Assembly (NCBI GenBank): GCA_023244815.1
Contig: JAHFLQ010000004.1
Coordinates: 1 to 59,259 of the forward strand
Direction: 5' to 3'
DNA: 59,259 bases
From: a bacterium
GTDB lineage: Bacteria > Patescibacteriota > Minisyncoccia > UBA6257 > WO2-44-18
A program made the translations under genes and the position numbers. Each line of letters starts with the position of its first letter. Position 1 is the first letter of the stretch. Shown piece by piece: positions 166 to 44,857 of the stretch. The notes under the pieces are model-generated. The model ran no database searches. It was not told where the DNA came from and worked only from the letters and a program-made list of their open reading frames with translations.

Positions 166-192
166 GACAATGGTTCATTGAAGGAGGTTCAG

Positions 193-669
193 ATGAGGGC
201 TGTGCTGAGGAGTGTGTTGTTCGGGATTAGTGGGGGCATAATTGGCATCGCTATAATGCTTTTAGTTCACTACGGCTTTACTGTCGACACCGTGAAAACT
301 GGCAGAACTGGCAGAGCTAGCCTGGAATTGCCGCTTATTGACACGATGGTTTCCATTGTGGAGGACGGTGCGGTTCGATTTGCAGTTTTTGACTATGACA
401 AAAAGGACATTTGCTATTTTTATGTCCCGATGGAAAATGTGAATGTTCTCAAAAGAAGTGACGGCAACGGCCACACATCGGTGATATTCAAAAACCAAAG
501 CCCGCACGGTCTAAACGACAAGTACAAAGACGCTACCATTCTTGCACCATCTGTGGAAGACGTTATTGAATGGAGCATCTGGCTAAAAGAGATTCAAACA
601 AGCAACCAAGAATACCAAGAGTCAAAAAAGAAATTTTCCCCGCGTCGTGTTTTACCGCCTAATAAGTAA
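193..669 (+). CDS. membrane-anchored hypothetical protein, paralog 1 of 3 (C-terminal PRRVLPPN motif)
   Basis: ATG 193 after GGAGG (track start TTG 178 lies upstream of the SD); N-terminal hydrophobic segment; shares RxDG, YTS/HTS, A-x-IL-x-P, W-x2-W/Y-LK and PRRVLPPN motifs with the next two ORFs. Confidence 0.85.
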   Translation: MRAVLRSVLFGISGGIIGIAIMLLVHYGFTVDTVKTGRTGRASLELPLIDTMVSIVEDGAVRFAVFDYDKKDICYFYVPMENVNVLKRSDGNGHTSVIFKNQSPHGLNDKYKDATILAPSVEDVIEWSIWLKEIQTSNQEYQESKKKFSPRRVLPPNK

Positions 670-678
670 ACTAACTAG

Positions 679-752
679 CCCCGCTACATAAGCGGGGTTT
701 TTGTTTTGGTTGACTTTGATTGGCGGGTGTTATAGGCTAACAACGGTTCATT
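679..752 (+). repeat. 74-bp terminator+promoter module, copy 1
   Basis: Identical to 1205-1278; hairpin CCCCGC-tacataa-GCGGGG plus T-tract, then TTGACT (710-715)-17-TAGGCT (733-738). Confidence 0.95.
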
Positions 753-765
753 GAAGGAGGAACGT

Positions 766-1191
766 ATGGGCAGAAAGTGGCAACTTGTTTGGGTCATCTT
801 GCTGGTTGTCTATGTTGCGTTCTTTGGTTGGTTGTTGGCCCCTGGGTTTTTGAAGCCCGACAAGGAATTGCCGATGTTGAGAGCGAACTTTTTTTCGGCT
901 GATGGGGACACATGGGACATTCGCGCTATTCTTGATGGAAAAGAGAAATATTTCTCAGTACCCATAAATAATTTATCTGTCCAATTACGCAACGATGGAC
1001 AGCCGTATACCTCAATCAAGCTTATTAATTCGCTTCATCCGAGTGACTGGAGCTACAAAGCGGCGGTTATTCTGGCGCCAACACCGGATGATCGCGCTGA
1101 TTGGGAAAATTACTTAAAAGCAAGAAAGGAAGCCCACAAGGAATATCAAGATTCAAAGCTTGTGCCGCGCAGAGTTTTACCGCCTAATTAA
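766..1191 (+). CDS. membrane-anchored hypothetical protein, paralog 2 of 3
   Basis: ATG 766 after AAGGAGG; N-terminal TM segment; ends VPRRVLPPN. Confidence 0.85.
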   Translation: MGRKWQLVWVILLVVYVAFFGWLLAPGFLKPDKELPMLRANFFSADGDTWDIRAILDGKEKYFSVPINNLSVQLRNDGQPYTSIKLINSLHPSDWSYKAAVILAPTPDDRADWENYLKARKEAHKEYQDSKLVPRRVLPPN

Positions 1192-1302: not shown

Positions 1303-1767
1303 GTGAAGCTGTGGCTGATCCCGTTGGCACTTGTTTTACTCCTCGGTGTTTGCATTTATGGTGTGTACAATTCTGATAAGCCAACTGATGAGCCAACTTA
1401 TCCGCCCGGCGAAGACCCGCAAACTTTCAACCTTTCAGCTGCTTGGCCCTGGTACGGCTGCGTTGAGTTTTCGACCATCGAAGTTAATCATAGTGGCGAT
1501 CCTTGGAAGCTAATCGTTGATTTGAAGAAGATTGACGTGAAAGCAAGAAGTGATGGACAGTTATATACCAGCGCAACTTTTTTTAAACACAGGCCACCCT
1601 ACGATACTTTCAAGTATCGGCCAGCCTATGAATCCGCGACTATTTTGGTGCCAGCGGAAGATGTTGAGAGTTGGAATCGCTGGATTAAGAAAGAGCTTGT
1701 AGCGGAACAAGCAGCAGAGACAAGAAGGCGAGCAGACTTTCTCCCGCACCGGTTTTTACCAAGATAG
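1303..1767 (+). CDS. membrane-anchored hypothetical protein, paralog 3 of 3
   Basis: GTG after AAGGAGG (1291-1297); N-terminal TM/signal; RSDGQLYTS, ATILVP and PHRFLPR match the paralog motifs. Confidence 0.8.
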   Translation: MKLWLIPLALVLLLGVCIYGVYNSDKPTDEPTYPPGEDPQTFNLSAAWPWYGCVEFSTIEVNHSGDPWKLIVDLKKIDVKARSDGQLYTSATFFKHRPPYDTFKYRPAYESATILVPAEDVESWNRWIKKELVAEQAAETRRRADFLPHRFLPR

Positions 1768-2751: not shown

Positions 2752-2818
2752 ATTTACTGTACAAATTTAATAGTTGTGTTATCTTAGTCGCAGCACGTTG
2801 ATTTATGGGAGCATTAGC

Positions 2819-4084
2819 ATGTTGGGCCTAGTAATCAATCTTACCTTTCTTGTATCGGTCACCTTTTTTGTCTGTTTTTTAGCGGTTGCCACTTATCGTG
2901 TTGTTTGCGATTCAGAAGAAGTAAAAAATAAGGAAAAACGAGCAAAGCTACTCAAGCCTATTGAAGGCGTCTTTAATCCAAAAGAAGAGTTGATTAGAAT
3001 TCGCCAAACGCCCAAATCGGATCGCAGACAAAAACTGAATGAGTACAAGAAAAAATTAGCCAATCAAATAGCCGGATTAGCTATGGTTCAAACAGAAGTT
3101 ATTCAGGCCATTAGGAAAAATCCAGACAGCTCGCCTAAAGAGCTGATAGAAATGGCAAGGAGTTTAGGCGCAGGGTTTGGAATGAGCAAGAAGCAGTTCT
3201 ATTCGGCCAAAAAGATCTTGCAAAAGTATTGCATAAGACGCGCGAAAATAAGAAAGGCAAGAAGAAGAAGGTATCCTGACGATAAACGAATTTATCGGGC
3301 TGCATTTGGCGAAAATCCATCCAGCGCTGTCAGAGTCATAGAAAGTCCGTTCGTGCTTTATTTTTGTTGCGCGAATTTAGACGACTATGTCCGGATTTAC
3401 TTTTCTGATGCAGGCCCAACGTATCGGAATAAAAATGCAGAGAAAATGAATAAATCCGGTGGCGTATATAAGCCCCAGCTTGTAGTGTTCGGCGCTAAGG
3501 GGATAGTTGCGGCTGAAAAATCAAATGCTGGCCGCTTTAGTCGTGGCGTGTCTCCGCGCGTTTACAAACACGAAGAACAGCACGCCATCAATGCGCTTGT
3601 TGGAAGCAAAACACCGGAAAATTTTCATGAGGAATCCATACCCTACGGTCCAATTGAGCCCCTAACTCTGAAGCTAAAAAGATTTATATGCTCTAGGTGT
3701 CGTATGGTGGAGGCGCAAGCGCATGACGAGTTGCTGGCTTTCTTTACCTGCCCATCGGACGAGGTGGACGAAGTCTTCAGGTGGCTAACCAACACAGCGG
3801 CAGAAGGTGGGTCTTATGATTACTTAGACGAGGAAAGGAAATCACTCTTGGCGTATTTTGATGAGAATGGTGTTTGCTACTACCGGCAAATAGCCAAGGA
3901 AGTAGTTACTAAGGTTCTCCGAGACGAATATCGCGAACTGATTCGTACCGGCCTGAATGCCTTTCAACAGCTCTTAGGGCTTGGTTTTTCCAGAGAAGAG
4001 GCGATTGCTATTCTGGGTCATGAACCGCTAAGGCGATGGAGGAAGCTGGCTAATAGGCTTGCCGATACCGTTAAATCAAATTAA
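2819..4084 (+). CDS. membrane-anchored protein with HExxH motif (putative zincin-like metalloprotease)
   Basis: ATG 2819 after GGAG; N-terminal TM; KHEEQHAIN motif and downstream HDELLAF. Confidence 0.7.
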   Translation: MLGLVINLTFLVSVTFFVCFLAVATYRVVCDSEEVKNKEKRAKLLKPIEGVFNPKEELIRIRQTPKSDRRQKLNEYKKKLANQIAGLAMVQTEVIQAIRKNPDSSPKELIEMARSLGAGFGMSKKQFYSAKKILQKYCIRRAKIRKARRRRYPDDKRIYRAAFGENPSSAVRVIESPFVLYFCCANLDDYVRIYFSDAGPTYRNKNAEKMNKSGGVYKPQLVVFGAKGIVAAEKSNAGRFSRGVSPRVYKHEEQHAINALVGSKTPENFHEESIPYGPIEPLTLKLKRFICSRCRMVEAQAHDELLAFFTCPSDEVDEVFRWLTNTAAEGGSYDYLDEERKSLLAYFDENGVCYYRQIAKEVVTKVLRDEYRELIRTGLNAFQQLLGLGFSREEAIAILGHEPLRRWRKLANRLADTVKSN

Positions 4085-4086
4085 AA

Positions 4087-4110
4087 CCCCGCACAAGCGG
4101 GGGATTTTTT
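4087..4110 (+). terminator. intrinsic terminator
   Basis: CCCCGC-acaa-GCGGGG followed by T-tract, 2 nt after the stop. Confidence 0.85.
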
Positions 4111-4166
4111 ATTTCTGTACAAATTTTAAAGATTATGTTATTTTGGGCACAGTACCTTAACTCTTT

Positions 4167-4895
4167 ATGGAGGTGCGCTTGAAAGATTTAAAGATTTTCC
4201 AAAAGCTGATTGGTTACGAATTCAAGAACCTGAATTTGTTAGAAGAGGCGCTGACGCATAGTTCCTATCCGAACGAACACAAAGATTGGCCCTACAAATC
4301 AAATGAGAGGTTGGAGATGTTGGGTGATTCGGTTCTAGAGCTTGCGGCTACCGACGAGCTATTTAGAAAATTTCCTAAGTTCGCAGAAGGAGATTTAACT
4401 GCCGCTCGGAGCGCTATGGTTAATAACAAAACCCTGTCTAAGATTGCCGAAAAGCTCAACATCGCGGATTGGATATTTGTATCACGCGGTGAAGCTAAGA
4501 GTTCTGAAAAGCCGCGGAACGCTATGGCGGTGAGGGCACTCGAAGCAATTATCGGCGCCATCTATATGGATGCCGGCCACGACATTGCTAAAAAGTTTGT
4601 ACAGGAGCGCGTCCTACGTCAACTTATGAATTACATGGCCTTACTTGGCGGCGGATCCTATCGTGACGCGAAAAGTTATCTTCAAGAAAAGATGCAATCA
4701 GAAAAGGGGATTACATCAACATACCGGACGTTAAAAGAAACAGGACCAGAAAATGAAAAGGTATTTGTGGTGGGCGTTTATGCAGATAGCGAACTGCTAG
4801 GTATGGGGTCCGGTTCTTCCAAGAAAGAAGCGGAACAATGTGCCGCAAAGCATGCCCTTGATCAACTTAGCGCCAAAAAGGAGGCGATGAGATGA
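4167..4895 (+). CDS. rnc: ribonuclease III (divergent)
   Basis: NERLEMLGDSVL signature, LEAIIGAIYMD, C-terminal dsRBD (DAKSYLQE...GSSKKEAEQ); the real start may be TTG 4179 after GGAGG. Confidence 0.92.
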   Translation: MEVRLKDLKIFQKLIGYEFKNLNLLEEALTHSSYPNEHKDWPYKSNERLEMLGDSVLELAATDELFRKFPKFAEGDLTAARSAMVNNKTLSKIAEKLNIADWIFVSRGEAKSSEKPRNAMAVRALEAIIGAIYMDAGHDIAKKFVQERVLRQLMNYMALLGGGSYRDAKSYLQEKMQSEKGITSTYRTLKETGPENEKVFVVGVYADSELLGMGSGSSKKEAEQCAAKHALDQLSAKKEAMR

Positions 4896-5830
4896 AACTA
4901 AGCAAAAAGCTGAACATATTAGAAATGTACTGCTTAGATCTGGAAAAATTTGAAAGAATTTCACCACAAGAAGAAAAAAGGCTAATTGCGGCGATTAGCA
5001 AGGCTCAGAAAGACAACAATCAGCAGCTGGCGATCCGACTTCGTAATGAGCTCGTGGAGATTAATTTAAGATTGGCGCTGATGGTGGGTAAAAGATTCGC
5101 TCGGTATCTTGATATTCGATCGAAAAGTGTGGATGAGTTAGACCTTATCCAAGAAGCAAATCTCGGATTAATCAAGGCAGCTGAATCATTCAATCCAAAA
5201 AGAGGGTTTCGGTTTTCTACTTACGCCTATTCTGTTATAGAGGGTTACGTAAAAAATTTTGTTCGTGACCGTCTTAGATTTATTCGGGTTCCTGCTGATT
5301 GCCAGAGAATGGTTTTCAGGGCGCGTGAAGCGTCGGTTGCCGATAATGGTCGTACGCCTACTTTGCAGGAAATATCTGAAGCGATGAAGATTTCGAAGGA
5401 AGACGCAATGCTTCTCACGGCCATAATTAACACCCGTGTATCGTCCTTGGACACGGAGATTGCTGATGGCATGAAGCTTGTAAATAAAGTTGCTTCCAGG
5501 CGTCTTTCTAGTAGTCAGGTGCTTGAAGCAAAGGAAGCACTGTCGGAAATTTTCCAAGCTATGGGTGGACTACCAGAAGAAGTAGCCAAAGTATCAACTT
5601 TGAAGGAATACCAGATATTTTTTCATCGATACGGCCTTGACGGAAGCCACCAATTTAAAGATACTACAGAAATTGGCAGACGGTTTCGCATAACAAATGA
5701 AAGGGTTCGTCAGATTATTAATGAGGTTTGGAAAAAACTGAAAGAAGCACGCCTTTGGTCTGGCGAAAGTAAACTTTGCGAGTTTCTTAGTCAGTTTGAT
5801 AAACTCGAAGGTATAATTGCCGCAAATTAA
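4892..5830 (+). CDS. sigma-70 family RNA polymerase sigma factor (RpoD/RpoS-like fold, degenerate region 2.3-2.4)
   Basis: DLIQEANLGLIKAAESFNPKRGFRFSTYA (region 2), PTLQEISEAM (region 3), EIGRRFRITNERVRQI (region 4.2); ATGA overlap with rnc. Confidence 0.88.
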   Translation: MKLSKKLNILEMYCLDLEKFERISPQEEKRLIAAISKAQKDNNQQLAIRLRNELVEINLRLALMVGKRFARYLDIRSKSVDELDLIQEANLGLIKAAESFNPKRGFRFSTYAYSVIEGYVKNFVRDRLRFIRVPADCQRMVFRAREASVADNGRTPTLQEISEAMKISKEDAMLLTAIINTRVSSLDTEIADGMKLVNKVASRRLSSSQVLEAKEALSEIFQAMGGLPEEVAKVSTLKEYQIFFHRYGLDGSHQFKDTTEIGRRFRITNERVRQIINEVWKKLKEARLWSGESKLCEFLSQFDKLEGIIAAN

Positions 5831-5857
5831 AATCCCGCAATTGATTGCGGGATTTTT
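5831..5857 (+). terminator. intrinsic terminator
   Basis: AATCCCGCAA/TTGCGGGATT 10-bp stem plus T-tract directly after the stop. Confidence 0.85.
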
Positions 5858-5910
5858 AATCGACAAGAAATGCCTTGTGGGGCAACCGGTCCCGTTTTTA
5901 TTTTAACGGG

Positions 5911-6186
5911 CTATTTTGTGTCGGGCTTTTTCGAATCCTCTTTCTCAACCATTTTATCTAGCCAGAAGAGAAGTCCGGCGATAACGATGAATGCCAAAAG
6001 ACCAATACAGGCGGTGGGCACAGCTTCTTTTTGAGGAGTGCATTTGATTAGTACGACCAGCATAATAATGGTAATCGGAATCAGAAAACAGCCGCTAAGA
6101 ATGCCCACGCCATCTTTTAGGTACAGCCATACGTGCCAAACGATAAAGCCAACGGCAGCTCCAACCAAAACCGAAAACATCACCAT
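5911..6186 (-). CDS. small membrane protein (3 TM)
   Basis: Three hydrophobic segments; SD AGGAG upstream on the minus strand. Confidence 0.7.
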   Translation of the reverse strand: MVMFSVLVGAAVGFIVWHVWLYLKDGVGILSGCFLIPITIIMLVVLIKCTPQKEAVPTACIGLLAFIVIAGLLFWLDKMVEKEDSKKPDTK

Positions 6187-6276
6187 TGCCCAGCTCCTAA
6201 AAACTTTCTAAAAGAAACTTTGCTTAATATACTACATTCAAAATAAATATAAAAGAGGCCAATTAAAAAACCGCGT

Positions 6277-6759
6277 TTAACGCGGTTTTTCTAAAATTTT
6301 GTAGCTTCTTATCTCAAGCCACCAAGTTCCCTTTATGTTAGTTTTTTTACCATCGAGATCTTCCAGGGTAAAACTTTCTAGCGTGTATGTGTACCTATGC
6401 CTGACGTAAAAAGTTACTTCGATAACTGCTCCTCTCGCAAAATCGTTAGTGGTGCCAGGCGTTGCTAGAAAGTAGTTTACGCCGTCGGAATTCACTACAC
6501 AGGTTGTTACGGGTTCTTCTCGGTTCTCGTGTTCCAGCAAGCTCAGACGTCTGGTTGAGGAGCCCACATAAATAAGGCATCCTTTTATGTACTTCTCTGC
6601 CGCCTGCTCAGATTTCAGGATTTTTGGAGTTTCATCTGAAGAACAGCTACGCAACAGGAAACTGCCAAACAACCACAAAAGGATATACAGCACTGCCGTG
6701 ATCGTAAAGCAAATCAAGAGGTCGAATTCTCCTCTTTGCGCCACAAGTTTTCGCGGCAC
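6277..6759 (-). CDS. membrane-anchored hypothetical protein
   Basis: GTG at 6759 after AAAGGA; promoter TTGACA-17-TACATT lies inside the longer track ORF (6277..6837); N-terminal TM; terminator 6265-6290 overlaps the stop. Confidence 0.75.
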   Translation of the reverse strand: MPRKLVAQRGEFDLLICFTITAVLYILLWLFGSFLLRSCSSDETPKILKSEQAAEKYIKGCLIYVGSSTRRLSLLEHENREEPVTTCVVNSDGVNYFLATPGTTNDFARGAVIEVTFYVRHRYTYTLESFTLEDLDGKKTNIKGTWWLEIRSYKILEKPR

Positions 6760-6862
6760 AGTTCGTCCTTTCAATGAACGGTCATTAATGTAATGTAAAT
6801 AATTTAAATTGTCAAGATTGGTTGCTTCAAAAATCAAAATAAGTTATATTCATTTCTATTAA

Positions 6863-9026: not shown

Positions 9027-9101
9027 TTGTGATATCATTACAGGCAACATAATGTTATAGGTGTTGACACCTATAAAGGCATTGTGTTAATATCTCAACC
9101 A

Positions 9102-10097
9102 ATGATTGAAGTTTCCAAAATCAACAATCTTATTAAATACTGCCTGGCGGGACTTTCGCCGCGGCAAAAAGAAATAATTGATGGCCGCTATGGCCTGACC
9201 AACGCGGAGAGTCTGACGCTCGCCGAGCTTGGCGGCAAATATAACCTGACCCGTGAGCGCGTTCGCCAGATCGAGGCTATTGCCCTGAAAGCCTGCAAAT
9301 CCAAATCTGCAAGTCTGGAACTTTCCGAATTCATAAAAACTGTTGTTGCCAGCTTACGGACTACCGGTGGTTTGAAACGGGAGGATTTGCTTATCCACGA
9401 ACTGGGAGGCGAAGCGCAAGCCAACCGATTTAAATTTCTTTTGGAAATCAGCGGCAAATTTCAATATGCGAAAGACGAAAAAACCTTCTACCCTTATTGG
9501 TATCTTTCTGATGTTGATAAAAAGAGGGCAGAATCTTTTGTGTCCTCTCTAGTGAAAAGCGCGGATCGAGAAAACTTTATGGCGAGTTTTATTTCCGCCG
9601 CGAAAACCTTAGGCCTGTCGGACGCGGTCGCCCGCCATTACGCCTCTGTTTCCAAGAAAATTTCTATGAATACTTACGGCAATATTGGCCTTTCCGATTG
9701 GCCGGAAATTAATCCAAAGACCGCCCGCGATTGGGCTTATTTGGTTTTGAAAAAAGAAAAGCGCCCGCTCCACTTTACCGAAATCGCAGAACGGGTTACC
9801 GGCCTTCGCAAAAAGAGCGCCCACGCTCCGACCGTCCATAACGAATTGATTAAGGATGAGAATTTCGTACTGGTTGGCAAAGGCACCTATACCCTGAAAG
9901 AATTCGGCGTTATTCCGGGTACCGCTCGCCAGCTGATTTCCCACTTTTTGAAAAAGCATGGGCCGATGAAGGCCAACGACGTTGTTAAACTGGTACTCAA
10001 GGAGCGCCTCTTCAAAGAAAATACGGTCTTAATCAATCTCCAGAACCGCCGGAACTTCAAGCGGATGGATGACGGCCGTTATACTACTTTGGTATAA
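9102..10097 (+). CDS. sigma-70 region-4-like HTH plus HARE-HTH (RNAP delta-like) domain protein
   Basis: N-terminal LTLAELGGKYNLTRERVRQIE; C-terminal RPLHFTEIAE...TVHNELIKDENFVLVGKGTYTL; ATG 9102 follows an extended -10. Confidence 0.75.
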   Translation: MIEVSKINNLIKYCLAGLSPRQKEIIDGRYGLTNAESLTLAELGGKYNLTRERVRQIEAIALKACKSKSASLELSEFIKTVVASLRTTGGLKREDLLIHELGGEAQANRFKFLLEISGKFQYAKDEKTFYPYWYLSDVDKKRAESFVSSLVKSADRENFMASFISAAKTLGLSDAVARHYASVSKKISMNTYGNIGLSDWPEINPKTARDWAYLVLKKEKRPLHFTEIAERVTGLRKKSAHAPTVHNELIKDENFVLVGKGTYTLKEFGVIPGTARQLISHFLKKHGPMKANDVVKLVLKERLFKENTVLINLQNRRNFKRMDDGRYTTLV

Positions 10098-17375: not shown

Positions 17376-17927
17376 ATGATTAAAAGAAAATTTGGAATAG
17401 TAACTATCGCGCTTCTTAAACTAATCACCGAGCGGGGTAAGTTGCTTATCAATGAGATTTTAGCGAATCCAAGAAAGACACTTGGACAGAGTTTACGCGC
17501 TATAGCGGACGCCAAAGATTTCGACCAGCACTACGAAGCGCTAGAAAATCTGAAGGACTCAAATGTCCGCATGATAATTTCCCGACTTAAAAGTAGAGGC
17601 TTGATAGCTCGGTATGGTAAGCACTACATCCCTACTAAAACGGGAGAGTGGGTGATTAATAAATTAAAGTCAAAAGAAAAATTGGCATGGGATAAAAAAT
17701 GGAGGGTTGTATTTTTCGATATTCCGGAATCTAGGCGGGGTGATCGAAAGTGGCTAGTAGCAAACTTATTGAGCGAGGGATTTCGCTCTCTCCAAAAAAG
17801 CGTTTTTCTTGGCAAGAATCCATTAGATCAAGACTTAGCCGAGACATTAGTTAGAAAAAATCTTTATCGATTTGTCAGAATAATAACAATAGGTGAAATC
17901 GATGACGACAATATTTTAGAAATATAA
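17376..17927 (+). CDS. PaaX-like regulator (winged helix plus Cas2-like ferredoxin fold)
   Basis: NVRMIISRLKSRGLI (wHTH); WDKKWRVVFFDIPESRRGDR...GFRSLQKSVF (PaaX/Cas2-like). No CRISPR array or other cas genes in the window. Confidence 0.8.
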   Translation: MIKRKFGIVTIALLKLITERGKLLINEILANPRKTLGQSLRAIADAKDFDQHYEALENLKDSNVRMIISRLKSRGLIARYGKHYIPTKTGEWVINKLKSKEKLAWDKKWRVVFFDIPESRRGDRKWLVANLLSEGFRSLQKSVFLGKNPLDQDLAETLVRKNLYRFVRIITIGEIDDDNILEI

Positions 17928-28589: not shown

Positions 28590-28665
28590 GCCACCTTAGC
28601 TCAGCTGGTAGAGCAATGCTTTCGTAAAGCAGAGGTCCCCGGTTCGAATCCGGGAGGTGGCTCCA
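28590..28665 (+). tRNA. tRNA-Thr(CGU)
   Basis: Acceptor GCCACCT/AGGTGGC, anticodon loop TTCGTAA, GGTTCGAATCC, encoded CCA. Confidence 0.95.
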
Positions 28666-28671
28666 ACGATC

Positions 28672-29397
28672 ATGTTCAAGGCACTAACAGGAAAATACGA
28701 TAACGGCCCGGCGCACCTGACGATCTACGCGGGCGTGGGTGGGGATGACGCCAAAGATTGGGCAGGTATGCTTTTCCGCATGTATATTAAGTACGCGCAA
28801 AAACGCGGTTGGAAAGTGGTGCAGACAGAAGATTTGGGCATGGAAGTCTACGGCGAATTTGTTTATGGGACACTGAAACACGAGATGGGCGTGCATCGTT
28901 TGGTGCGCATCTCGCCATTTTCTTCTAAACAATTACGTCACACTTCTTTCGCGCTGTTGGAGGTGGTGCCGATTTTTCAAGACATTGAGCATAAAAAATT
29001 GATAATTCCACCGGAAGATTTGAAGGTGGAGTTTTCGCGTTCCAGCGGTCCCGGCGGGCAAAATGTTAATAAAAGGGAGACGGCAGTGCGCGTCGTTCAT
29101 TTACCAACAGGCATCAGTGCGGCTTCCCAGCAAGAGCGCTCCCAGCTCCAGAACAAAGAAAAGGCGGTGTCGCTTCTGAAGTCTAAGTTAATGGCGCTGA
29201 TGATTGCCCAGCAGAAACAACAGCTCTCCGATTTGCGCACCAAAGTAAAGCCGGAGTGGGGAAACCAGATCCGCTCTTACGTGCTCAATCCGTATAAAAA
29301 AGTGAAAGATCATCGGACTAATGTAGAATCATCCCAGCCGGATAAAGTGCTGGCTGGCGAACTTGATAAGTTCATCGAAGCAGAGCTACAATTGTAA
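28672..29397 (+). CDS. prfB: peptide chain release factor 2, lacking N-terminal domain 1
   Basis: YAGVGGDDAKDW, GVHRLVRISPF (SPF = RF2), GPGGQNVNK, WGNQIRSYV; only 241 aa. Confidence 0.9.
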   Translation: MFKALTGKYDNGPAHLTIYAGVGGDDAKDWAGMLFRMYIKYAQKRGWKVVQTEDLGMEVYGEFVYGTLKHEMGVHRLVRISPFSSKQLRHTSFALLEVVPIFQDIEHKKLIIPPEDLKVEFSRSSGPGGQNVNKRETAVRVVHLPTGISAASQQERSQLQNKEKAVSLLKSKLMALMIAQQKQQLSDLRTKVKPEWGNQIRSYVLNPYKKVKDHRTNVESSQPDKVLAGELDKFIEAELQL

Positions 29398-36053: not shown

Positions 36054-39000
36054 ATGAATAAGCCCAGAACGGCGTTTTTTTGGATTTTTATTGGCCTGTT
36101 TTTAGGTTTTACTTTTGGTTTAGCCTATTCAGTTCGTGCCAGCTTGGTTAGTGAAGATATTTTTACAAAAAGTTTTTTCAGTCAAGCGGTAGGTGAATTA
36201 AACAAAATAGAAAAACAGCCTTCGTATGTCAGCGAAGGTTTTCATAAAATTCAGGACTTTGCTCAGATAAATTTCAGCGTTCCCCAGCCGCCCTCTAATG
36301 CCGACTTGCCGAAAGTGACCATCACCATTACTTCGGAAGGGCCGCCGGTATACAACGAAGATTTATTGCAAAGGACTGTAAACAACCTACAGCACACGTC
36401 CCGTTCTTTGCAGGAGTTTATTTCCAGCATCCAGCCGACCATGTTAGTTGTGCCTCAAGGAGTTGAGGTGTCCATTACCGTTCCTCAGCCGCAAGGAGCG
36501 GCGCCGCCTCCGCAGGTAGTACGGGAGGTTGTCACGGAAAGAGTTGTCCAACAGACGCCGGTGATTCAGGAAATTCGGCTTATTCTTCCGCCGGCGCCTG
36601 CTGGGTATTTTGCCCAATTCGGACAGCAATCGGTGGGCGGCTCTAATGTCACTAACATTACCAACCCGGTGATCCGCGAAACCATTGTGCAGACCTCGGT
36701 GGATAATTCGGCTGTTAACGCTCTTAGCCAATCCATCCAGCTCCAGTTGGCCGATTTGCAAAGAGTGATTGCCCAGTCAGCGCCCACTCTTGATGACGCC
36801 CACATTCCAGACAACATTACTGTCAGTAACTACCTTACGTTGGCCGGCGGCAGTATCACAGGCGGCCTGACCGGATCATCATTTACGGCAGTTACTTCCG
36901 GCACCTCCACTTTCGCCGGCGGTTTACTGGTTGCGACCAGCACCGGCAACTTTGGTGTTGCGACTGCTACTCCGGCTTCGCTTTTGTCGGTTGGCGGCAG
37001 CGCCCTGATCAAGGGTAATTTTACGGTTGAGGGAACGGTGGATTTTCAAGGCGCTTGTGTTGCTTGCACCCAGTGGGTTACTACCGGAAATGATATTTAC
37101 TACACCACCGGCAACGTCGGCATCGGCACCACCACGCCGATGGAGAAATTGACATTGACGGGAGGGAATTTCTTGAACCAGATTAGTGCCAGCCCCACAT
37201 CCAGGAGCGGAGTGGATCTCAGTGGTGCCTCCCCTGACCGCATATTTGTGGTAGGCCGATACGCCTATATCGTAAAAGATAATAATTCTGCCACTTGTTC
37301 CGGTACCACCGAGCCCAAAGGCTGTGAGCTGCAAATTTACGACACCGGTACCGCTTCCACTACTTATCTTGGCGGTATCGCCATCGGATCCTCCGACGAT
37401 GTTTATGGGCTTTATGTTTCCGGCCGATACGCCTATACCACCAAAACTGCCAACGGCGGCACCTGTTCCGGTACCACTCTTACCGGCTGTGAACTTTCCA
37501 TCTATGACATTTCCAATCCCTCCTCCATCACGGCGGCGGGTGGAATCGATCTCGGCGATGTTAACGCCCAAAGCGTTTTTGTTTCCGGCCGCTATGCCTA
37601 TGTTGTCAAGAGTGACTCGGATAGTGCTACCTGTTCCGGAACAGCCATCAACGGTTGCCAATTCGCGATTATTGACATTTCCAATCCAGCCGCCCCGGTG
37701 GCAGTAAGCGGCGCCCGGTTAGGCGGGGCCATTGTAACCGCCTATAGCATTTATGTTTCCGGCCGTTACGCCTACATAACTAATGGTTCCGATAACCATA
37801 ATCAATTCGTTATTTATGACGTATCCAACACCGCTTCTACGACCGAAGTAGGAGGTGTGAATGTAGGGTCTTCCGTATCGGAGGTTCAAGTCGATGGCCG
37901 ATACGCTTACATACTTAAGGGCAACACCAGCGGCACCTGTTCCGGCACCACTCTGACCGGCTGTGAGTTTTCTATTTACGACATTTCCAATCCGGCTTCC
38001 CCGTCAGCGGTTGCCGGCCTTGATCTGGCCGTTGGCAGTAATGCCTACCCCGGCCCGGAACTGTTTCTTGCCGGCCGCTATGCTTATATTGCCCAACTTA
38101 GCCGGGCGGGCGCCTGCTCCACCACTTCGGTGTCAGCATCAGGATGCGAAGTTCTTTTTATTGATATTTTCAATCCGGCGTCGCCGGTGATTGCCGGCGG
38201 CCTGGATATGGCAGATGACAATACAAACGGAATTTTTGTTTCTGGGAAATATGCTTATGTAATCAAAAATGCGAATACCGGCACCTGTTCCGGCACCACT
38301 CTTACCGGCTGTGAGTTTACCATCTACGACCTCGGGGGCTCCGAAATCGGCACTGCCAACATCGGCTCCCTGGAAGCCGGCCAACTCCAGGTACGTAATA
38401 ATCTGACTGTTTCCGGCCAAGCCAACATCGCTTCCAGTTTAAACGTGGGGGGTGGCGGAGTGAAAACCGACGGTTCGTTGTCCGTGGCTTCGACATCTAT
38501 CTTGTATGCCGGTCTGGGCACCGGCACTACCAGCTTATGGGGGCAACTCTCTCTTGATCCTCTGGCCGGCACCGTTAATTACCGCACCCCTGCCTTCGCT
38601 ATTCAGGATGCCGGCACCTCCACCCCCTCCCTACTGGTAGACGGCGGATACGGCAGAGTCGGTATCGGCACCTCCTCCCCCTACGGACAGTTCTCTATTG
38701 AAATCACCGGTGAACCGGCCAACTTAACCAATGAGGGCCTGCCCGCCTTTGTAGTCAGCTCTCGCGGCACTTCCACTCCATCTTTGTATGTGAGGAGCGA
38801 TAACGGTAATGTCGGTTTCGGTTCTTCTTCTCCCGGCGCCGCTCTTGCTGTGACTGGCGCTGCGGTAATTTCTGACAATACCACCCTCAACACCCTGGAT
38901 ATCCAGGGCACCAGTCTTTTAGAAGGTAATGTCACTATAGCGGGCAATGTAGTTAGTAGCGTAACTGTCACTAACACTGCCAGCGGCGGCGGTTTTAGCA

Positions 39001-42000
39001 GCGCCGGGATTTCTGTGACAAATTTGGATACGAACATAGCGGGTCTTACGATCAACGAACTTCTAGCTTCGGGAAACGGCTCGGGGCAAATAGTTATTAC
39101 TCCCAGAGATACCTCGATCGGATCCGGTATTGGCCCTTTGATTACTATAACCGGCAACAGTTTTCAGGGAGGCTCCGGTGCCACTTTTTACCTTAAAATA
39201 AACCAGAACGGGAATGACGCCAATACCCTTTTGCTGGGGACGCTCCTTCAGACAAGCAGCGGACCGATCATTCTAAACCCGAACTCGGATCTTATTGTCC
39301 AATCCAACGCTACGGTGCGCGCCCGCTTCACCTCCACCGCTCTTGATGTGGTCGGCACTACCACCACTTCCAGAGGCATCAACATTCTTGGCAACCAACT
39401 TTATATCGGCAATGGCATAACAGCTACCTCATCAATTTATGGCCAATACGGCAATCTAGGATTTGGCTCCACCACTCCCTACGGCCAGGTATCCATTGAA
39501 GCTCAACAGGGCATAGTCGGTTCATCCACGCCGATATTTGTAGTTGGAGACCAGGGCTCCTCTACACCCTTCATATATGTAAGCGGAATAAACGGGAACG
39601 TGGGCATCGGCACCAGTAGCCCAGCCGCTCCTCTTGCAGTGGCCGGAAACGGCACTGCTCCCGCAGTTCTCATCAGTCAGGCTTCTACCGGCGATCTCTT
39701 GGACGTTATTGACGCGAGCAACGGGGCTCCTGCGCTCGTTGTCAAAGATGGGGGAAACATTGGTATTGGGGTAGCGAATCCTGATTTTCCTCTGCATATT
39801 CGCAAAGACCAGAATAATGGCAACACGATAGTATATGTGGAGAACCAAACCAACGATACGGCTTCCGAAACGAGATTTATGGCTCAAGCCGGTACTTTAA
39901 CAACCGATAGAATTATCCTCAGTATAACCTCTCCCAGCTTTACCGCTAGCGGGTTGGACGCGCCCAGCCAGGCCAGGTTCATTTCATCCAGACCACTTTT
40001 ACTTAAAACCGATAACTATATCCGGTTTGGGGTATCCAGCACGGAAATTGCCCGCATTACCAGCTCGGCCTTGGAAATAGGCGCGGGAGATTATGGCAGT
40101 TCACCGGCGATCCGGTTTATTAATACTCCAGGCGGTACAATTCAATCTTTTATTGGCAGCGAAGGCACGGCTTCTTGGAACGTCTCCGGCTCGGCAGTGG
40201 GCGACTTAATTCTAAGAGAAACGACTAGCGGCGGCAGGATTCTACTCTCGGCTAATGATGGTGGCGCTATTCACCTGGCGGTCACCAGCGGCGGCAATGT
40301 CGGCATTGACCGCAGCAATCCTTCAACTGCTTTGGAAGTGGTCGGCACTACCACCACTTCCAGAGGCATCAACATTCTTGGCAACCAACTTTATATCGGC
40401 AACGGCCTCGTTGCCACCTCATCAATTTATGGCCAATACGGTAATCTCGGTTTCGGCTCCACCACTCCCTACGGCCAGGTATCCATTGAAGCTCAACAGG
40501 GCATAGTCGGTTCATCCACGCCGATATTTGTAGTTGGAGACCAGGGCTCCTCTACACCCTCTCTATATGTCAGCGGAATAAACGGCAACGTGGGCATTGG
40601 TTCTTCTTCTCCACTGGGCCAGTTCGCTATTGAAGTTAACAGGGACAAGAATCGCAATCCTGACGGTACGGATAATGTTCCGGCATTTTTCATAGGCTCT
40701 AATGGAACCACTACTCCAATATTGGCAGTTACCCGCTCTAACGAGGGGAGAGTCGGTTTCGGCACTACTTCACCATATGGCCAAGTTGCGATTGAAATCA
40801 GGGGCGAGCCATCTAACATCGCCAACGAAGGGTTGCCGGCTTTTGTTATCTCATCAAGAGGCACCGGCACTCCAAGCCTTTTTGTGAGTAATAATAATGG
40901 CTTCACCGGTTTTGGTTCATCCAGCCCGTGGGGTCAGCTTTCAGTTGAAATATTAGATCAGGGAGATGAATCTGTTCCGTCATTCATAGTAGGCGATACC
41001 GGCACCTCCACCCCCGCCCTGGCGGTCTATTCCAGCGGGATCACGACTATCGAAAACCTCCAAACCGGCGTTCTAAGTTTTGACACCAACGCCGGAGCGG
41101 TTACCTGGGTTGATTTGCCGGTTACTACAGCCGCAACCTGGGCAACTATCGAGTCCTATACGGCCCAAAACGGCGCCTCCTCCACCCTAACTGTTTATTC
41201 GGAAAGTAATGGCAAGGGAGGCGTTTTCCGCCAGCGCATAGGTATCGGCACCACATCTCCCGGTTCCACGCTTACAATTTCTACCGCGACTACTTCCCAA
41301 GCCGCTTTCTTTGTTGAGGGGAACGCCGATCGGGATTTCGTGATCAATGAAAATCTTTTTGTCGGCATAGCTACTTCGGTGCCCAGGGGATTGTTCGCCA
41401 TAGATGTCCCTTCGGCCGCTGACAATATACCGGTTGACGCCAAAACTCCCGCCTTTGTTGTTCAAGACTCCGGCACCTCCACCCCCTCCCTGCTGGTAGA
41501 CGGCGGATACGGCAGAGTCGGTATCGGCACCTCCTCCCCCTACGGACAGTTCTCTATTGAAATCACCGGTGAACCGGCCAACTTAACCAATGAGGGCCTG
41601 CCCGCCTTCGTCATCTCCTCCAGAGGAACCAGTACTCCAAGCTTTTTTGTCAGCGGCACTAATGGGAATGTCGGTATCGGCACATCTTCGCCGCAGGCGT
41701 CCCTTGCTATAGATAACATTAATACCGGCAATACTTTCCCCGCGCTGCTTGTTAGGGCGAGTGGTTCTGGCCAGGGCAATGTCGCTATCGCTGTTGATGG
41801 TGATGACGTTTGCAAATCTGGCACGGTTATAGCCGCTACTTGCTTGTTGACTGACTTGGCTGAGCTATATCCTACGTCTGAAAGTCTTGGCGGGGGAGAT
41901 GTTGTTATGTTTGACAATGACGACCCTATTCACATCAAGAAAGCCACATACGAAGAACGCGATAAACTTGGCGGCGTTATTTCCACCGCTCCGGCCATCG

Positions 42001-42725
42001 TTTTTGAAGGGCCCAGTATCAAGATTTTAGGCGGCCAGTATTCCGCGCAAGACAAAAAAGCGCCTATCGCTCTTTCTGGCCGAATTCCGGTAAAAGTTAA
42101 ATTGGACAACGGTCCAATTCGTATCGGTGACCCGATTACAGTTTCTACCACGACTCCAGGCGTCGGCGTTAAAGCGGTTGATTCCGGAAAAATTATCGGT
42201 TTTGCGATTGATAACCTAGAAACTGCGACCACTGCCCCAGGGATCTATGATCAGGTGATGGTTTTTGCTAACTTAACCTACTGGACCGATCCTAAACACG
42301 AAACCAACGAAGGCCTGTTGGCGCGGGTAGTAGATGCGATTGCTGATTGGCTGAAAACTGCCGCGATTAAGATAAAAGACCTTGTTGTTGATACTTTGAA
42401 GATTGGCACTCAAGATCAACCAAGCGGTATTACCACTTACGATGTTAGGACGCATAATCCTTACTGCATCGTCGTGGACAACGGCCAGACAACTTCTATA
42501 CCCGGCGTTTGTACCGCGGAATTGATTAATAATTATCTGACTCCGCCCGGATCTTCCGGCGGTGGAAGTTCTCCCGCGCCAGTTTCTGAACCCACGCCTG
42601 AACCAACTCCTACGCCCGAACCCACGCCTGAACCAACTCCTGAGCCATCGCCAACCCCCGCTCCTGAATCCGCGCCCGCGCCAATCGCTCCAACAAACGA
42701 TCAGACTACCCAACCGGCGCCATGA
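36054..42725 (+). CDS. giant surface/adhesin-like protein (2223 aa): LVIVD-type beta-propeller, GIGTTSP repeats, tailspike-type autoproteolytic chaperone domain, PEPT tail
   Basis: N-terminal TM/signal; 7 repeats of VSGRYAY...IYDISNP; many GNVGIGTSSP units; DLAELY...GVIS...PIALSGRIPVKV...GD..PG; (PTPE)n. Confidence 0.85.
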   Translation: MNKPRTAFFWIFIGLFLGFTFGLAYSVRASLVSEDIFTKSFFSQAVGELNKIEKQPSYVSEGFHKIQDFAQINFSVPQPPSNADLPKVTITITSEGPPVYNEDLLQRTVNNLQHTSRSLQEFISSIQPTMLVVPQGVEVSITVPQPQGAAPPPQVVREVVTERVVQQTPVIQEIRLILPPAPAGYFAQFGQQSVGGSNVTNITNPVIRETIVQTSVDNSAVNALSQSIQLQLADLQRVIAQSAPTLDDAHIPDNITVSNYLTLAGGSITGGLTGSSFTAVTSGTSTFAGGLLVATSTGNFGVATATPASLLSVGGSALIKGNFTVEGTVDFQGACVACTQWVTTGNDIYYTTGNVGIGTTTPMEKLTLTGGNFLNQISASPTSRSGVDLSGASPDRIFVVGRYAYIVKDNNSATCSGTTEPKGCELQIYDTGTASTTYLGGIAIGSSDDVYGLYVSGRYAYTTKTANGGTCSGTTLTGCELSIYDISNPSSITAAGGIDLGDVNAQSVFVSGRYAYVVKSDSDSATCSGTAINGCQFAIIDISNPAAPVAVSGARLGGAIVTAYSIYVSGRYAYITNGSDNHNQFVIYDVSNTASTTEVGGVNVGSSVSEVQVDGRYAYILKGNTSGTCSGTTLTGCEFSIYDISNPASPSAVAGLDLAVGSNAYPGPELFLAGRYAYIAQLSRAGACSTTSVSASGCEVLFIDIFNPASPVIAGGLDMADDNTNGIFVSGKYAYVIKNANTGTCSGTTLTGCEFTIYDLGGSEIGTANIGSLEAGQLQVRNNLTVSGQANIASSLNVGGGGVKTDGSLSVASTSILYAGLGTGTTSLWGQLSLDPLAGTVNYRTPAFAIQDAGTSTPSLLVDGGYGRVGIGTSSPYGQFSIEITGEPANLTNEGLPAFVVSSRGTSTPSLYVRSDNGNVGFGSSSPGAALAVTGAAVISDNTTLNTLDIQGTSLLEGNVTIAGNVVSSVTVTNTASGGGFSSAGISVTNLDTNIAGLTINELLASGNGSGQIVITPRDTSIGSGIGPLITITGNSFQGGSGATFYLKINQNGNDANTLLLGTLLQTSSGPIILNPNSDLIVQSNATVRARFTSTALDVVGTTTTSRGINILGNQLYIGNGITATSSIYGQYGNLGFGSTTPYGQVSIEAQQGIVGSSTPIFVVGDQGSSTPFIYVSGINGNVGIGTSSPAAPLAVAGNGTAPAVLISQASTGDLLDVIDASNGAPALVVKDGGNIGIGVANPDFPLHIRKDQNNGNTIVYVENQTNDTASETRFMAQAGTLTTDRIILSITSPSFTASGLDAPSQARFISSRPLLLKTDNYIRFGVSSTEIARITSSALEIGAGDYGSSPAIRFINTPGGTIQSFIGSEGTASWNVSGSAVGDLILRETTSGGRILLSANDGGAIHLAVTSGGNVGIDRSNPSTALEVVGTTTTSRGINILGNQLYIGNGLVATSSIYGQYGNLGFGSTTPYGQVSIEAQQGIVGSSTPIFVVGDQGSSTPSLYVSGINGNVGIGSSSPLGQFAIEVNRDKNRNPDGTDNVPAFFIGSNGTTTPILAVTRSNEGRVGFGTTSPYGQVAIEIRGEPSNIANEGLPAFVISSRGTGTPSLFVSNNNGFTGFGSSSPWGQLSVEILDQGDESVPSFIVGDTGTSTPALAVYSSGITTIENLQTGVLSFDTNAGAVTWVDLPVTTAATWATIESYTAQNGASSTLTVYSESNGKGGVFRQRIGIGTTSPGSTLTISTATTSQAAFFVEGNADRDFVINENLFVGIATSVPRGLFAIDVPSAADNIPVDAKTPAFVVQDSGTSTPSLLVDGGYGRVGIGTSSPYGQFSIEITGEPANLTNEGLPAFVISSRGTSTPSFFVSGTNGNVGIGTSSPQASLAIDNINTGNTFPALLVRASGSGQGNVAIAVDGDDVCKSGTVIAATCLLTDLAELYPTSESLGGGDVVMFDNDDPIHIKKATYEERDKLGGVISTAPAIVFEGPSIKILGGQYSAQDKKAPIALSGRIPVKVKLDNGPIRIGDPITVSTTTPGVGVKAVDSGKIIGFAIDNLETATTAPGIYDQVMVFANLTYWTDPKHETNEGLLARVVDAIADWLKTAAIKIKDLVVDTLKIGTQDQPSGITTYDVRTHNPYCIVVDNGQTTSIPGVCTAELINNYLTPPGSSGGGSSPAPVSEPTPEPTPTPEPTPEPTPEPSPTPAPESAPAPIAPTNDQTTQPAP

Positions 42726-44857
42726 GCTACTTCAATAAAATTTTCAGAATATTTGCCGTTCTTGCGGTAGCGTTGATTATAGTTTTAGGCTGGCGGCCGA
42801 CAAAAGCAGGTATCTTTACTGCCAAAAATCCCACCACCAACGGCCTCATCGGCTACTGGAATTTTGAAGAAGGCGACCCCAACGCTACCGCGACCGACCG
42901 TAGCGGCAGTGGAAACAACGGAACTCTGACTAACGGCCCAACCGTCACATCCGGTATCATCGGCCAGGCGCTGAAGTTTGACGGGAGTAATGATTACGTG
43001 GAGATTGCTGACAATAACGCGCTCGACCTTACCACGAGTGGGACAATTTCCGCCTGGATTAACGTGACCAGCCAGCCGGCTGGCAACGGATTCATTGTCA
43101 ACAAAGCAATCAATGAGAGTACCACTCCTAATGGCTACTCTATCTCATATATTGCCAATGGCGGATGTAGCAGTGGTTATCAGATCCGTATCGATATCGG
43201 CAATGGAACCAGTTATAACGCACCCGGTCTTTGCGGAACTCTTTCCCTAAACCGGTGGTACCACCTGGCAGGTACCTGGTCTTCGGGTGGAACAGTTGTG
43301 GTATATCTTGATGGCGCGCAGGCTGGATCCGTTGCAAATACGGTTACTCCTACCAACAATGCCACTACCTTAACGATAGGCGCCGGGCGTAACACCGGAT
43401 CAATTGATGATTTTTTCACCGGCAAGATAGACGAAGTCCGCCTCTACAACCGTGCCTTGAGCGCCGCGGAGATAGCTGCAATTTACCAAACAACGACGCA
43501 CAGAACTATTATGAAATCCCCCCCGCTGAACAACGGCCTCATCGGCTACTGGAATTTTGAAGAAGGTTCCGGCACTACCGCCAACGATAGAAGCGGCAAC
43601 GGAAACAACGGTTCTATTGAGGGCGGAGCGCCATTTACTGACGGTAAAATCGGACAGGCTCTGGACCTTGACGGTACCGATGATCGGGTTTTAGTTACTA
43701 CTAATAGCGGATTGGAAACTAATACTAATGTAACTGTGGCTCTTTGGATTAATCCTGATGATGCCGCCAAAGCTACAAGCCAACAATTGGCTTCGAAATA
43801 TAGCTCCACCCCCCAAAACGGCTATGTCTTATACATTCCGGCGTCGGTCAACACTATCAAGTGGGAGCTTAGACTTGGTTCGTGTTGCCAAGCGGTTCAG
43901 GCCCTCACTGCTCTAGTTAATGGGACGTGGCAGCATGTCGTGGCCACCTACGACGGCGCGACTTTAAAGGTTTATATTAACGGTGTTTTGGAGAATAGCT
44001 CAGCATCATCCGGGACATTGACTAGTACAAATAATTTAGCGCTTGGTGCTGATTGGAGTGGTGCCACCGTTCAGCCATTTGATGGCAGGATGGATGAAGT
44101 CCGCCTCTATAACCGGGCCTTGAGCGCCGGGGAAATAGCCGCGCTTTACCAGTCGACGGCTGTTTTCCGGCCAACGCGAAAAGCAACCATCAACACCTCC
44201 CAAAACACCCGCTTTAATAACAGTCTAGTCGGCCTTTGGTCTTTCAACGGTCCGGATGTAAGCGGTACTACGGCCACTGACATCAGCGGTAACGGAAATA
44301 CTGGCACGCTGACTAACGGCCCGACGGTAGTTCCCGGCATTATCGGCCAAGCGCTGAATTTTGATGGGGTGAATGATTATGTGAATGTAGGAAATGCATC
44401 AGGACTGAATCCATCGACCGCCATTACGCTCGCCGGATGGATCAAGATCGTTGACACCACGAGTCAATTACCTATCGTCGCGAGGTGGGCAGCCTCATCC
44501 TTTCGGTACATGATTGATGTATTTAACAAGAACGCTCGATTCTTCATACGCGATTCTGCAGGTACACAAGGACTCGTAACAGGATCTACAGCACTGGAGC
44601 CAGGCACTTGGTACCATGTCGCGGGCGTCTACAATGGAACCACCATGACATTGTATGTCAATGCTGTTTCGGAGGGGGCGCTGAGCGGATCAATACCTGC
44701 GTCTATGGATGCTGGCACAGCAGCAACGCTTATAGGGACAAAAGGAGATGCGACTACCGAGTACTTTAACGGCCCCATCGACGAACTCCGCATTTACAAT
44801 CGGGCGTTAAGCTCCTCTGAAATTACAGAAATATACAATGCGGGCAAGCGCCAGTAA
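42722..44857 (+). CDS. secreted protein with three LamG/concanavalin-A-like domains
   Basis: Three repeats of GLIGYWNFEE...D.SGNGN.G...GQALxFDG...W.H.A.TY...G.IDEVRLYNRALS; ATGA overlap with the giant gene. Confidence 0.9.
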   Translation: MSYFNKIFRIFAVLAVALIIVLGWRPTKAGIFTAKNPTTNGLIGYWNFEEGDPNATATDRSGSGNNGTLTNGPTVTSGIIGQALKFDGSNDYVEIADNNALDLTTSGTISAWINVTSQPAGNGFIVNKAINESTTPNGYSISYIANGGCSSGYQIRIDIGNGTSYNAPGLCGTLSLNRWYHLAGTWSSGGTVVVYLDGAQAGSVANTVTPTNNATTLTIGAGRNTGSIDDFFTGKIDEVRLYNRALSAAEIAAIYQTTTHRTIMKSPPLNNGLIGYWNFEEGSGTTANDRSGNGNNGSIEGGAPFTDGKIGQALDLDGTDDRVLVTTNSGLETNTNVTVALWINPDDAAKATSQQLASKYSSTPQNGYVLYIPASVNTIKWELRLGSCCQAVQALTALVNGTWQHVVATYDGATLKVYINGVLENSSASSGTLTSTNNLALGADWSGATVQPFDGRMDEVRLYNRALSAGEIAALYQSTAVFRPTRKATINTSQNTRFNNSLVGLWSFNGPDVSGTTATDISGNGNTGTLTNGPTVVPGIIGQALNFDGVNDYVNVGNASGLNPSTAITLAGWIKIVDTTSQLPIVARWAASSFRYMIDVFNKNARFFIRDSAGTQGLVTGSTALEPGTWYHVAGVYNGTTMTLYVNAVSEGALSGSIPASMDAGTAATLIGTKGDATTEYFNGPIDELRIYNRALSSSEITEIYNAGKRQ

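Follow-up and report, generated by a model that had tools for sequence, protein, structure and literature searches.

The rnc-sigma operon

The DNA analysed here is a 59,259-nucleotide stretch (hereafter the window; positions 1 to 59,259, forward strand, of contig JAHFLQ010000004.1 from assembly GCA_023244815.1) of a groundwater bacterium of the Patescibacteria (Candidate Phyla Radiation, CPR), and our subject is a pair of genes within it that appears to form a two-gene chromosomal operon, i.e., rnc for RNase III followed by a gene for a divergent sigma-70-family factor. Our direct observations concern the gene structure, the residues, the confidence of the fold, the rarity of the sigma factor, the linkage statistics and the genome-wide promoter motif. 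The two open reading frames (ORFs), 4167..4895 (242 aa) and 4892..5830 (312 aa), both lie on the + strand and share an ATGA start/stop overlap at 4892-4895. On the upstream side, the intrinsic terminator of the preceding gene (4087..4109, + strand; stem 4087-4102 followed by a U run) folds at -13.2 kcal/mol (z = -3.8, with 0/200 shuffles folding equally well) and delimits the rnc-sigma transcription unit on its 5' side. On the downstream side, the operon ends in an intrinsic terminator (5829..5857, + strand) made of a 12-13 bp perfect inverted repeat followed by U's, the hairpin of which (about 5829-5856; arms 100% complementary) folds at -16.1 kcal/mol (z = -6.1). This terminator is the only perfect inverted repeat in the operon and its leader, and none of the hairpins there was convincing as an RNase III target (leader fold z = -0.34).

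The initial annotation had proposed this layout of rnc and a 312-aa sigma gene joined by ATGA and bracketed by terminators, and the ORFs and hairpins bear it out. Its rnc gene also stands, while the start codon has to be moved, probably to TTG 4179 (rnc 4179..4895, + strand, 238 aa; 242 aa if the start is ATG 4167), because a Shine-Dalgarno GGAGG lies at 4169..4173 (+ strand) and the N-terminus then fits the homologue consensus MxDLxxLEKxIG; the 238-aa form was also chosen by gene callers on two other contigs. The gene for the sigma factor (4892..5830, + strand), identified by Pfam, NCBIfam, alignment and an AlphaFold2 (AF2) model, has its own GGAGG (4880..4884, + strand) within the 3' end of rnc, 7 nt before ATG 4892. 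Translation of rnc would start from TTG 4179 and that of the sigma gene from the ATG overlapping the rnc stop, and this overlap together with the second GGAGG implies that both proteins would be made together.

Upstream of rnc lies a promoter-like element (4115..4144, + strand) composed of TGTACA (4116-4121), a 17-nt spacer and the extended -10 TG-T-TATTTT (4136-4144). The full bipartite pattern was found once, against 0.02 expected, and its 12-mer CTGTACAAATTT (4115-4126) has three matches at one mismatch or fewer, two of them exact, against 0.29 expected. The second exact copy, at 2757-2768, begins a sister element (2757..2786, + strand) upstream of a neighbouring ORF, in which CTGTACAAATTT is followed by 16 nt between the hexamers TGTACA and TATCTT, and this spacer ends in TGT to give the extended -10 TGTTATCTT. 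The operon transcript would probably begin at a housekeeping-type extended -10 promoter of the form TGTACA-N17-TGTTATTTT, for which the element at 4115..4144 is the candidate, and would finish at the hairpin 5829-5857. The ORF behind the sister element (2819..4084) encodes a 421-aa orphan with an N-terminal transmembrane helix and an HEEQH (HExxH-like) motif, and it has no match in Pfam, PDB, PHROG or PADLOC. The common promoter-like element suggests that this ORF could be co-regulated with the rnc-sigma unit. As an anti-sigma factor the 421-aa protein was considered and rejected, since it matches no family and its sole link to the operon is the common 12-mer.

Groundwater metagenomes yielded the locus on one contig of 139.6 kb and also on shorter ones. 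Two further assemblies carry an identical copy, while over about 12 kb a third shows six mismatches and one gap. The sequencing runs that hold the locus are of groundwater metagenome DNA only, with no RNA among them.

Residues and fold of the sigma factor

An exhaustive search of 1.84 billion representatives found the closest relative of the sigma factor at 35-36% identity and none above 36%. The protein passes the Pfam cut-offs for Sigma70_r2 (54.3 vs 24) and Sigma70_r4 (32.9 vs 24.1) and falls just under that for Sigma70_r3 (22.2 vs 25.3). It lies far below every NCBIfam sigma cut-off, the best model being TIGR02997 (115.8 vs 384.5); the RpoD/SigA models fail (RpoD_Cterm 107.4 vs 354; PRK09210 105.6 vs 572), as does the group 3 model TIGR02980 for the whole protein (89.8 vs 234.35). 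The AF2 model is nevertheless confident (mean predicted local distance difference test, pLDDT, 87.7), with sigma1.2, sigma2, sigma3 and sigma4 all helical, and its top structural matches are SigA and RpoS. Sigma1.1 is absent, sigma1.2 spans residues about 9-40, sigma2 about 44-128 and sigma3 about 135-180, while the 3.2 linker (181-206) is short and non-acidic, and after sigma4 (207-285) comes an additional C-terminal helix (292-310; block mean pLDDT 88-93, last two residues 61).

Where E. coli, B. subtilis and other primary sigma factors read FSTYATWWIRQAITR, this protein reads FSTYAYSVIEGYVKNF, and region 4.2 has ITNERVRQI for VTRERIRQI. In E. coli numbering, the substitutions are W433S, W434V, R436E, Q437G, T440K, R441N, H455D and R584N, and E458 falls in an alignment gap; the replaced residues in the protein's own numbering include S114/V115 (codons 5231-5236), G118, N122, D136 (5297-5299) and N269 (5696-5698). 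Of these replacements, T440K, R441N, H455D and the gap at E458 go beyond those listed in the initial annotation, all of whose quoted residues, in both proteins, are correct by alignment. The substitutions are unusual among real relatives too, as the comparison with 262 sigma factors and 119 RNases III revealed. Among the 262 sigma relatives, W433 is present in 226, W434 in 252, Q437 in 237, R441 in 246 and R584 in 249. The core-binding residues D403, Q406, E407 and N409 equal the consensus of these relatives, the -11A pocket is retained (F419, R423, F427, T429, Y430), and so are most DNA contacts of region 4.2 (E585, R586, R588, Q589). Overall, the protein departs from its relatives at 12/49 highly conserved columns, the relatives' median being 1. 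The losses are thus concentrated in the reading of the -10 and extended -10 and in the melting wedge, and folding and core binding are spared.

Residues 100-147 (regions 2.3-3.0) score best with the TIGR02980 SigBFG model (28.1 bits vs 27.2 for RpoS). The likeness to region 2.4 of group 3, YAxxxIxGxVxxFVRD, rests on the sequence of B. subtilis SigF, which reads YAVPMIIGEIQRFIRD; a group 3 comparison in the PDB with a 39-aa peptide returned nothing useful. No genes for anti-sigma or anti-anti-sigma partners were recognised among the neighbours.

The protein had initially been called degenerate and thought able to sequester RNA polymerase. The confident sigma1.2-2-3-4 fold, the retained core-binding and -11A residues and the SigB/F/G-like regions 2.3-3.0 support neither view. 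Group 3 sigma factors work without the tryptophan dyad; sigma28, which lacks W433/W434, initiates transcription (PMC12784957). Most likely, this is a functional alternative sigma factor of narrow specificity on a group 1/2 scaffold. It would bind core RNA polymerase via the conserved region 2.2 and region 4 and would still capture the flipped -11 base, and it would do so without wedging by W433/W434, without T-12 reading and without reading of the TG motif. Lacking these functions, it would need near-consensus promoters of its own type, as group 3 factors do.

RNase III and its pairing with the sigma factor

The RNase III consists of an RNase III domain (RIIID) and a double-stranded RNA-binding domain (dsRBD), carries both signatures NERLEMLGD and ALEAIIGA, and matches the Pfam domains Ribonucleas_3_3 (122.7 bits), Ribonuclease_3 (83.1) and dsrm (59.2). 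Its score against the NCBIfam equivalog TIGR02191 (216.1 bits) is above the cut-off of 166.25, and it is 47-53% identical to enzymes of Parcubacteria/Paceibacteria. Six of the seven acidic residues, E38, E41, D45, E65, E100 and E117 (E. coli numbering), are retained and invariant in relatives. At the D114 position the protein reads AMAVRALEAIIGA, which places Arg123 (242-aa numbering from ATG 4167; codon AGG 4533-4535) where the Asp/Asn metal ligand is expected. In the 119 closest relatives this column holds Asn in 92 cases, Asp in 27 and Arg in none, so the clade norm is Asn, not Asp (92/119). Asn at this site also occurs in RIIIDa, the first RNase III domain of human Drosha, and Arg in a Thermoflexus enzyme. 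Arg123 is the same in a 448-nt variant contig, which differs by five single-nucleotide polymorphisms (V122A, V199I, K228R and one synonymous change in rnc; one synonymous change in the sigma gene).

Mutagenesis of E. coli RNase III revealed "very low tolerance ... except for D114" (PMC10037077). The D114R mutant has a fitness of 0.97 (wild type 1.00, E117K 0.71) and an in-vivo functional score of about that of the wild type (wild type 0, E117K -2.18), with in-vitro cleavage of 17% as compared to 69% for the wild type and 3% for E117K, while mutation of E41, D45 or E117 abolishes cleavage (PMC10037077). The substitution at D114 is real and rare, and it is no sign of a non-cleaving protein; a dead enzyme is not indicated because D114R is tolerated by E. 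coli in vivo. The earlier suggestion that the arginine marks a non-cleaving or non-housekeeping RNase III is not borne out in view of the equivalog score (216 vs 166 bits), the Asn norm of the clade and the D114R fitness of 0.97 (PMC10037077). Judged from its sequence, this RNase III is most likely the cell's ordinary double-stranded RNA (dsRNA) endonuclease, which should be catalytically competent.

Whether the gene pair recurs depends on the side from which it is viewed. Starting from rnc, 0/80 GTDB loci (about 35 from CPR) have a sigma gene within 6 kb, and they show no common synteny; the pairing is therefore not general to CPR. Starting from the sigma factor, the pairing is not a one-off. 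We assigned the protein informally to a subfamily (alignment A2: P0241, P0002, P0003, P0004, P0244, P0247, P0249, P0006) marked by the region 4 motif RYGLDGSxxxK...ITxERVRQI..VWxKL and a C-terminal helix after 4.2, and the sigma factor agrees with its broader form, RYGLDGxxxxK..(I/V)T(R/N)ERVRQI..VWxKL plus helix. The support for this assignment is weak, as the sigma factor scores 120-136 bits to members and 108-115 bits to generic primary sigma factors. Within about 5 kb of the sigma gene, rnc is found in 4/11 subfamily contigs as compared to 0/80 generic sigma loci (Fisher p = 1.2e-4; 1.0e-3 without the window), and the seven other subfamily contigs lack it. These 80 loci came from a JGI metagenome scan with the subfamily region 4 motif, which was rejected as a source of members since 79/80 sigma ORFs score better against a generic primary sigma factor; they served only as a negative control for linkage.

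The two genes lie on the same strand in the four contigs, but their arrangement differs. The ATGA overlap is that of the window; in L095 (rnc at 856-1758) the order is the same, rnc then sigma, with a 25-nt gap; in L093 (rnc at 5231-5953) sigma precedes rnc by 48 nt with a terminator between; and in L086 (rnc at 2193-2891) rnc lies 5.1 kb upstream of sigma. All four linked RNases III lack Asp/Asn at position 114 (window Arg, L086 Gly, L093 Ser, L095 Cys), as compared to 3/194 unlinked enzymes (p = 5.6e-7), and the L095 enzyme also has Gln at E38. The four do not group together by similarity, and the closest resemblance of the three linked rnc genes examined is to CPR rnc. With a small sample and unbinned contigs, the linkage and the loss of D114 are a lead, not a result. 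Within this small subfamily, which is loosely defined, apparently of CPR origin and tends to adjoin rnc, the sigma factor is the member that has diverged most.

Interpretation and known systems

We favour, with moderate confidence and on the strength of the sequence, the reading that two proteins are expressed together from the operon, namely the cell's RNase III, which is probably still active, and an alternative sigma factor particular to this lineage and of narrow, non-canonical -10 specificity. The promoters of the host bear on this. Extended -10 motifs of the TGTTATAA type dominate its upstream regions: in 28 regions there are 7 occurrences of TGNTAWWWT (1.0 +/- 1.1 after shuffling) and 8 of TTGAC (2.3 after shuffling), while TGTTAT occurs 10 times in 37 regions (1.7 after shuffling; z = 6.1). 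In a de novo count over the 37 regions, TTATAA (z = 5.4) and TGTTAT rank just after hexamers derived from terminators or repeats. Because reading of T-12 and TG needs residues that this sigma factor has lost, a canonical sigma factor is probably encoded elsewhere, and the genome would then hold a separate primary one. The GC content at third codon positions (GC3) of the sigma gene is 0.377, second lowest of 47 genes (mean 0.52, sd 0.05), and that of rnc is in the normal range. The initial view that the sigma factor is probably not the housekeeping one is supported by the lost T-12/TG readers and wedge, the TGTTATAA-type motifs, the low GC3 and the recurrence of the pairing with rnc. The extended -10 motifs TGATATAAT, TGTTAAAAT and TGATAATAT are often found no more than 15-20 nt ahead of the start codon (e.g., 50751, 55472, 19226), so that the mRNAs of several genes would have very short leaders or none.

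Several points weigh against this reading. The motif enrichment is based on about 10 sites, and no target promoter was identified for the sigma factor. The SigBFG preference of regions 2.3-3.0 is marginal (28.1 vs 27.2 bits). The sigma factor has no close homologue, and the sole variant contig spans rnc and 54 nt of the sigma gene, too little for dN/dS. In about 73 kb examined of the 139.6-kb contig there is no second full sigma gene, the only sigma-like genes being this one and one for a protein with region 4 and HARE-HTH. Moreover, the rnc-linked relatives keep the canonical residues, and several have a sigma1.1-like N-terminal domain or lie beside parB; these relatives may be primary sigma factors and this gene their orthologue, not an extra paralogue.

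The last two points lead to the strongest rival, which we nevertheless consider unlikely, namely that the protein is the primary or only sigma factor of the organism, an orthologue of the rnc-linked subfamily that performs housekeeping initiation without the wedge and the canonical -12/TG readers. The region 4 motif and C-terminal helix are common to primary-looking relatives, several of them beside parB; rnc linkage is common to three such relatives; sigma1.1 is also lost in P0003 and P0004; and the operon has housekeeping neighbours (secDF, efp, mnmA). This rival has difficulty with the TGnTATAAt-type enrichment upstream of genes, which needs equivalents of Q437, T440, H455 and E458, none of which is retained. 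A GC3 far under the genome norm is odd for a highly expressed core gene, and deviation at 12/49 conserved columns stands against a median of 1 in relatives. The sequence examined, moreover, amounts to only about 7-10% of a typical CPR genome.

Somewhat less probable still is that the operon represents an undescribed, apparently CPR module that ties RNase III functionally to a sigma factor, in which the linked RNases III have given up one metal ligand, the enzyme tunes the sigma mRNA or regulon, and the sigma factor, having changed most in this lineage, is either a wedge-less primary one or a new alternative class derived from a group 1 scaffold.

A further, rather doubtful explanation sees in the sigma factor a non-initiating protein, i.e., a decoy or modulator of RNA polymerase or a decaying gene, encoded beside an RNase III whose main role would be to bind dsRNA, not to cleave it. 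In its favour, the melting dyad has been replaced along with almost every sequence-specific -10 contact while the core-binding residues remain, the 3.2 finger is short and non-acidic, Asp/Asn at 114 is missing from 4/4 sigma-linked RNases III as compared to 3/194 unlinked ones, and cleavage by E. coli D114R is weaker in vitro (17% vs 69%). Against it, the ORF is intact with a strong Shine-Dalgarno and is present in three assemblies, the fold is confident, and the -11A pocket and most region 4.2 contacts would be needless in a pure decoy. Active group 3 sigma factors exhibit the same kind of losses, and on the enzyme's side E41, D45 and E117 are unaltered, and D114R performs in vivo almost like the wild type.

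Very improbable is the view that the pair travels as cargo of some mobile or defence element, whether a serine recombinase/type I restriction-modification (R-M) island by the tRNA or an MzaA-like anti-phage system, since its support (a large serine recombinase and type I R-M just left of tRNA 1-71, the otherwise orphan genes at 178-6837, the low GC3 of the sigma gene, and MzaA as its second-best NCBIfam and only PADLOC match) is met by an MzaA score of 111.4 bits against a cut-off of 800, which reflects generic sigma similarity, by the failure of any neighbour to match a defence model, by phage sigma factors of at most 30% identity in tblastn with only a generic sigma family in PHROGs, by the normal composition and typical CPR likeness of rnc, and by the tRNA 3' end, which points to the recombinase side, away from the operon. 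Origin from a phage, a plasmid or a defence system was rejected on the same tblastn (<=30% identity), PHROGs (generic sigma) and PADLOC (generic MzaA only) results.

The genes named as possible cargo partners, hsdR and hsdM for type I R-M and that for the large serine recombinase beside tRNA 1-71, lie left of window position 1 (L001, 1-4988) and may form an integrated island beyond the tRNA as seen from the operon. From this tRNA up to secD at 6863, all genes apart from rnc-sigma are orphans. They include three small paralogues (178..669, 751..1191, 1303..1767; 29-44% identity), each with an N-terminal membrane anchor, its own terminator and a TTGACT...TGTTATAGG promoter module, and none with a family match. 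A 114-bp direct repeat (640-752 and 1165-1278, 93.9% identity) accompanies them, and contig L002 apparently lacks one unit. Further on, the window carries chromosomal genes such as secDF, efp, mnmA, comEC, a class II aminoacyl-tRNA synthetase gene, ndk, lepA, ftsEX, fmt, def and type IV pilus genes.

Besides that of the operon, the window has a single sigma-like gene, 9084..10097, which encodes a 337-aa protein with an N-terminal sigma-70 region 4 and HARE-HTH and no region 2; it is followed by genes for a DUF8128 protein and a VirD4/TraG-like coupling ATPase. The ORF with the lowest GC3 of the window (0.375), 17376..17927, encodes 183 aa with a Cas2-like PaaX_M domain, and near-identical AAATGTTATAAA elements precede it and the next gene. 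ORF 28657..29397 encodes a 246-aa release-factor-like protein made of the C-terminal half of PCRF and an RF-1 domain, with the usual N-terminal ~100 residues missing, and its predicted start overlaps the 3' end of tRNA-Thr (28590-28665). Between this ORF and ftsE, 29398-29459 contains TAGCGACTAG twice and TAGTGGC three times, and these repeats account for the enrichment of the hexamer TGGCTA. ORF 36054..42725 (2223 aa) overlaps by 4 nt ORF 42722..44857 (711 aa, three Laminin_G_3/sialidase-like lectin domains), and both probably encode large surface proteins.

Little is understood of regulation in CPR bacteria, owing to their tiny genomes and the difficulty of culturing them. If true, an alternative sigma factor that combines a primary scaffold with group-3-like -10 determinants would amount to a natural experiment in the evolution of sigma specificity; if it is the organism's only sigma factor, it would call into question that promoter melting of the sigma-70 type cannot do without W433. 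New here is the linkage of the sigma subfamily with rnc, with Asp/Asn at D114 lost in all four linked RNases III, and this recurrent neighbourhood and repeated ligand loss hint at an undescribed coupling of transcription and RNA processing.

On the evidence in hand, the operon is a variant and not a new kind of system, as its comparison with known ones indicates. The RNase III resembles class 1 enzymes (Rnc; TIGR02191; E. coli, Aquifex, Thermotoga) in its one RIIID and one dsRBD, its NERLEMLGD signature, the retained E38, E41, D45, E65, E100 and E117 and its score above the equivalog cut-off, and differs in having Arg where Asp (in CPR mostly Asn) sits at D114 and in that rnc is followed by a sigma gene, not era. 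Sigma factors of groups 1/2 (RpoD/SigA, RpoS) provide the best overall matches in sequence and structure; regions 1.2, 2.1-2.2, 3 and 4.2 are of that type, with NERVRQI near RERIRQI. Unlike them, the protein lacks sigma1.1, has a short non-acidic 3.2 linker and an extra C-terminal helix, and carries replacements of W433, W434, R436, Q437, T440, R441, H455 and R584, with E458 in a gap. With group 3 (SigB/SigF/SigG, TIGR02980; FliA/sigma28) it has in common the missing tryptophan dyad and a region 2.4 of the form YAxxxIxGx[IV]xxF[IV]RD, whereas its regions 4 and 1.2 are group 1-like. From its own subfamily it is set apart by an identity of only 29-36% to any member; W434 is conserved in all members, W433 in nearly all and the other -10 readers in most (three have Q437A), and several have a sigma1.1-like N-terminal domain and a parB neighbour.

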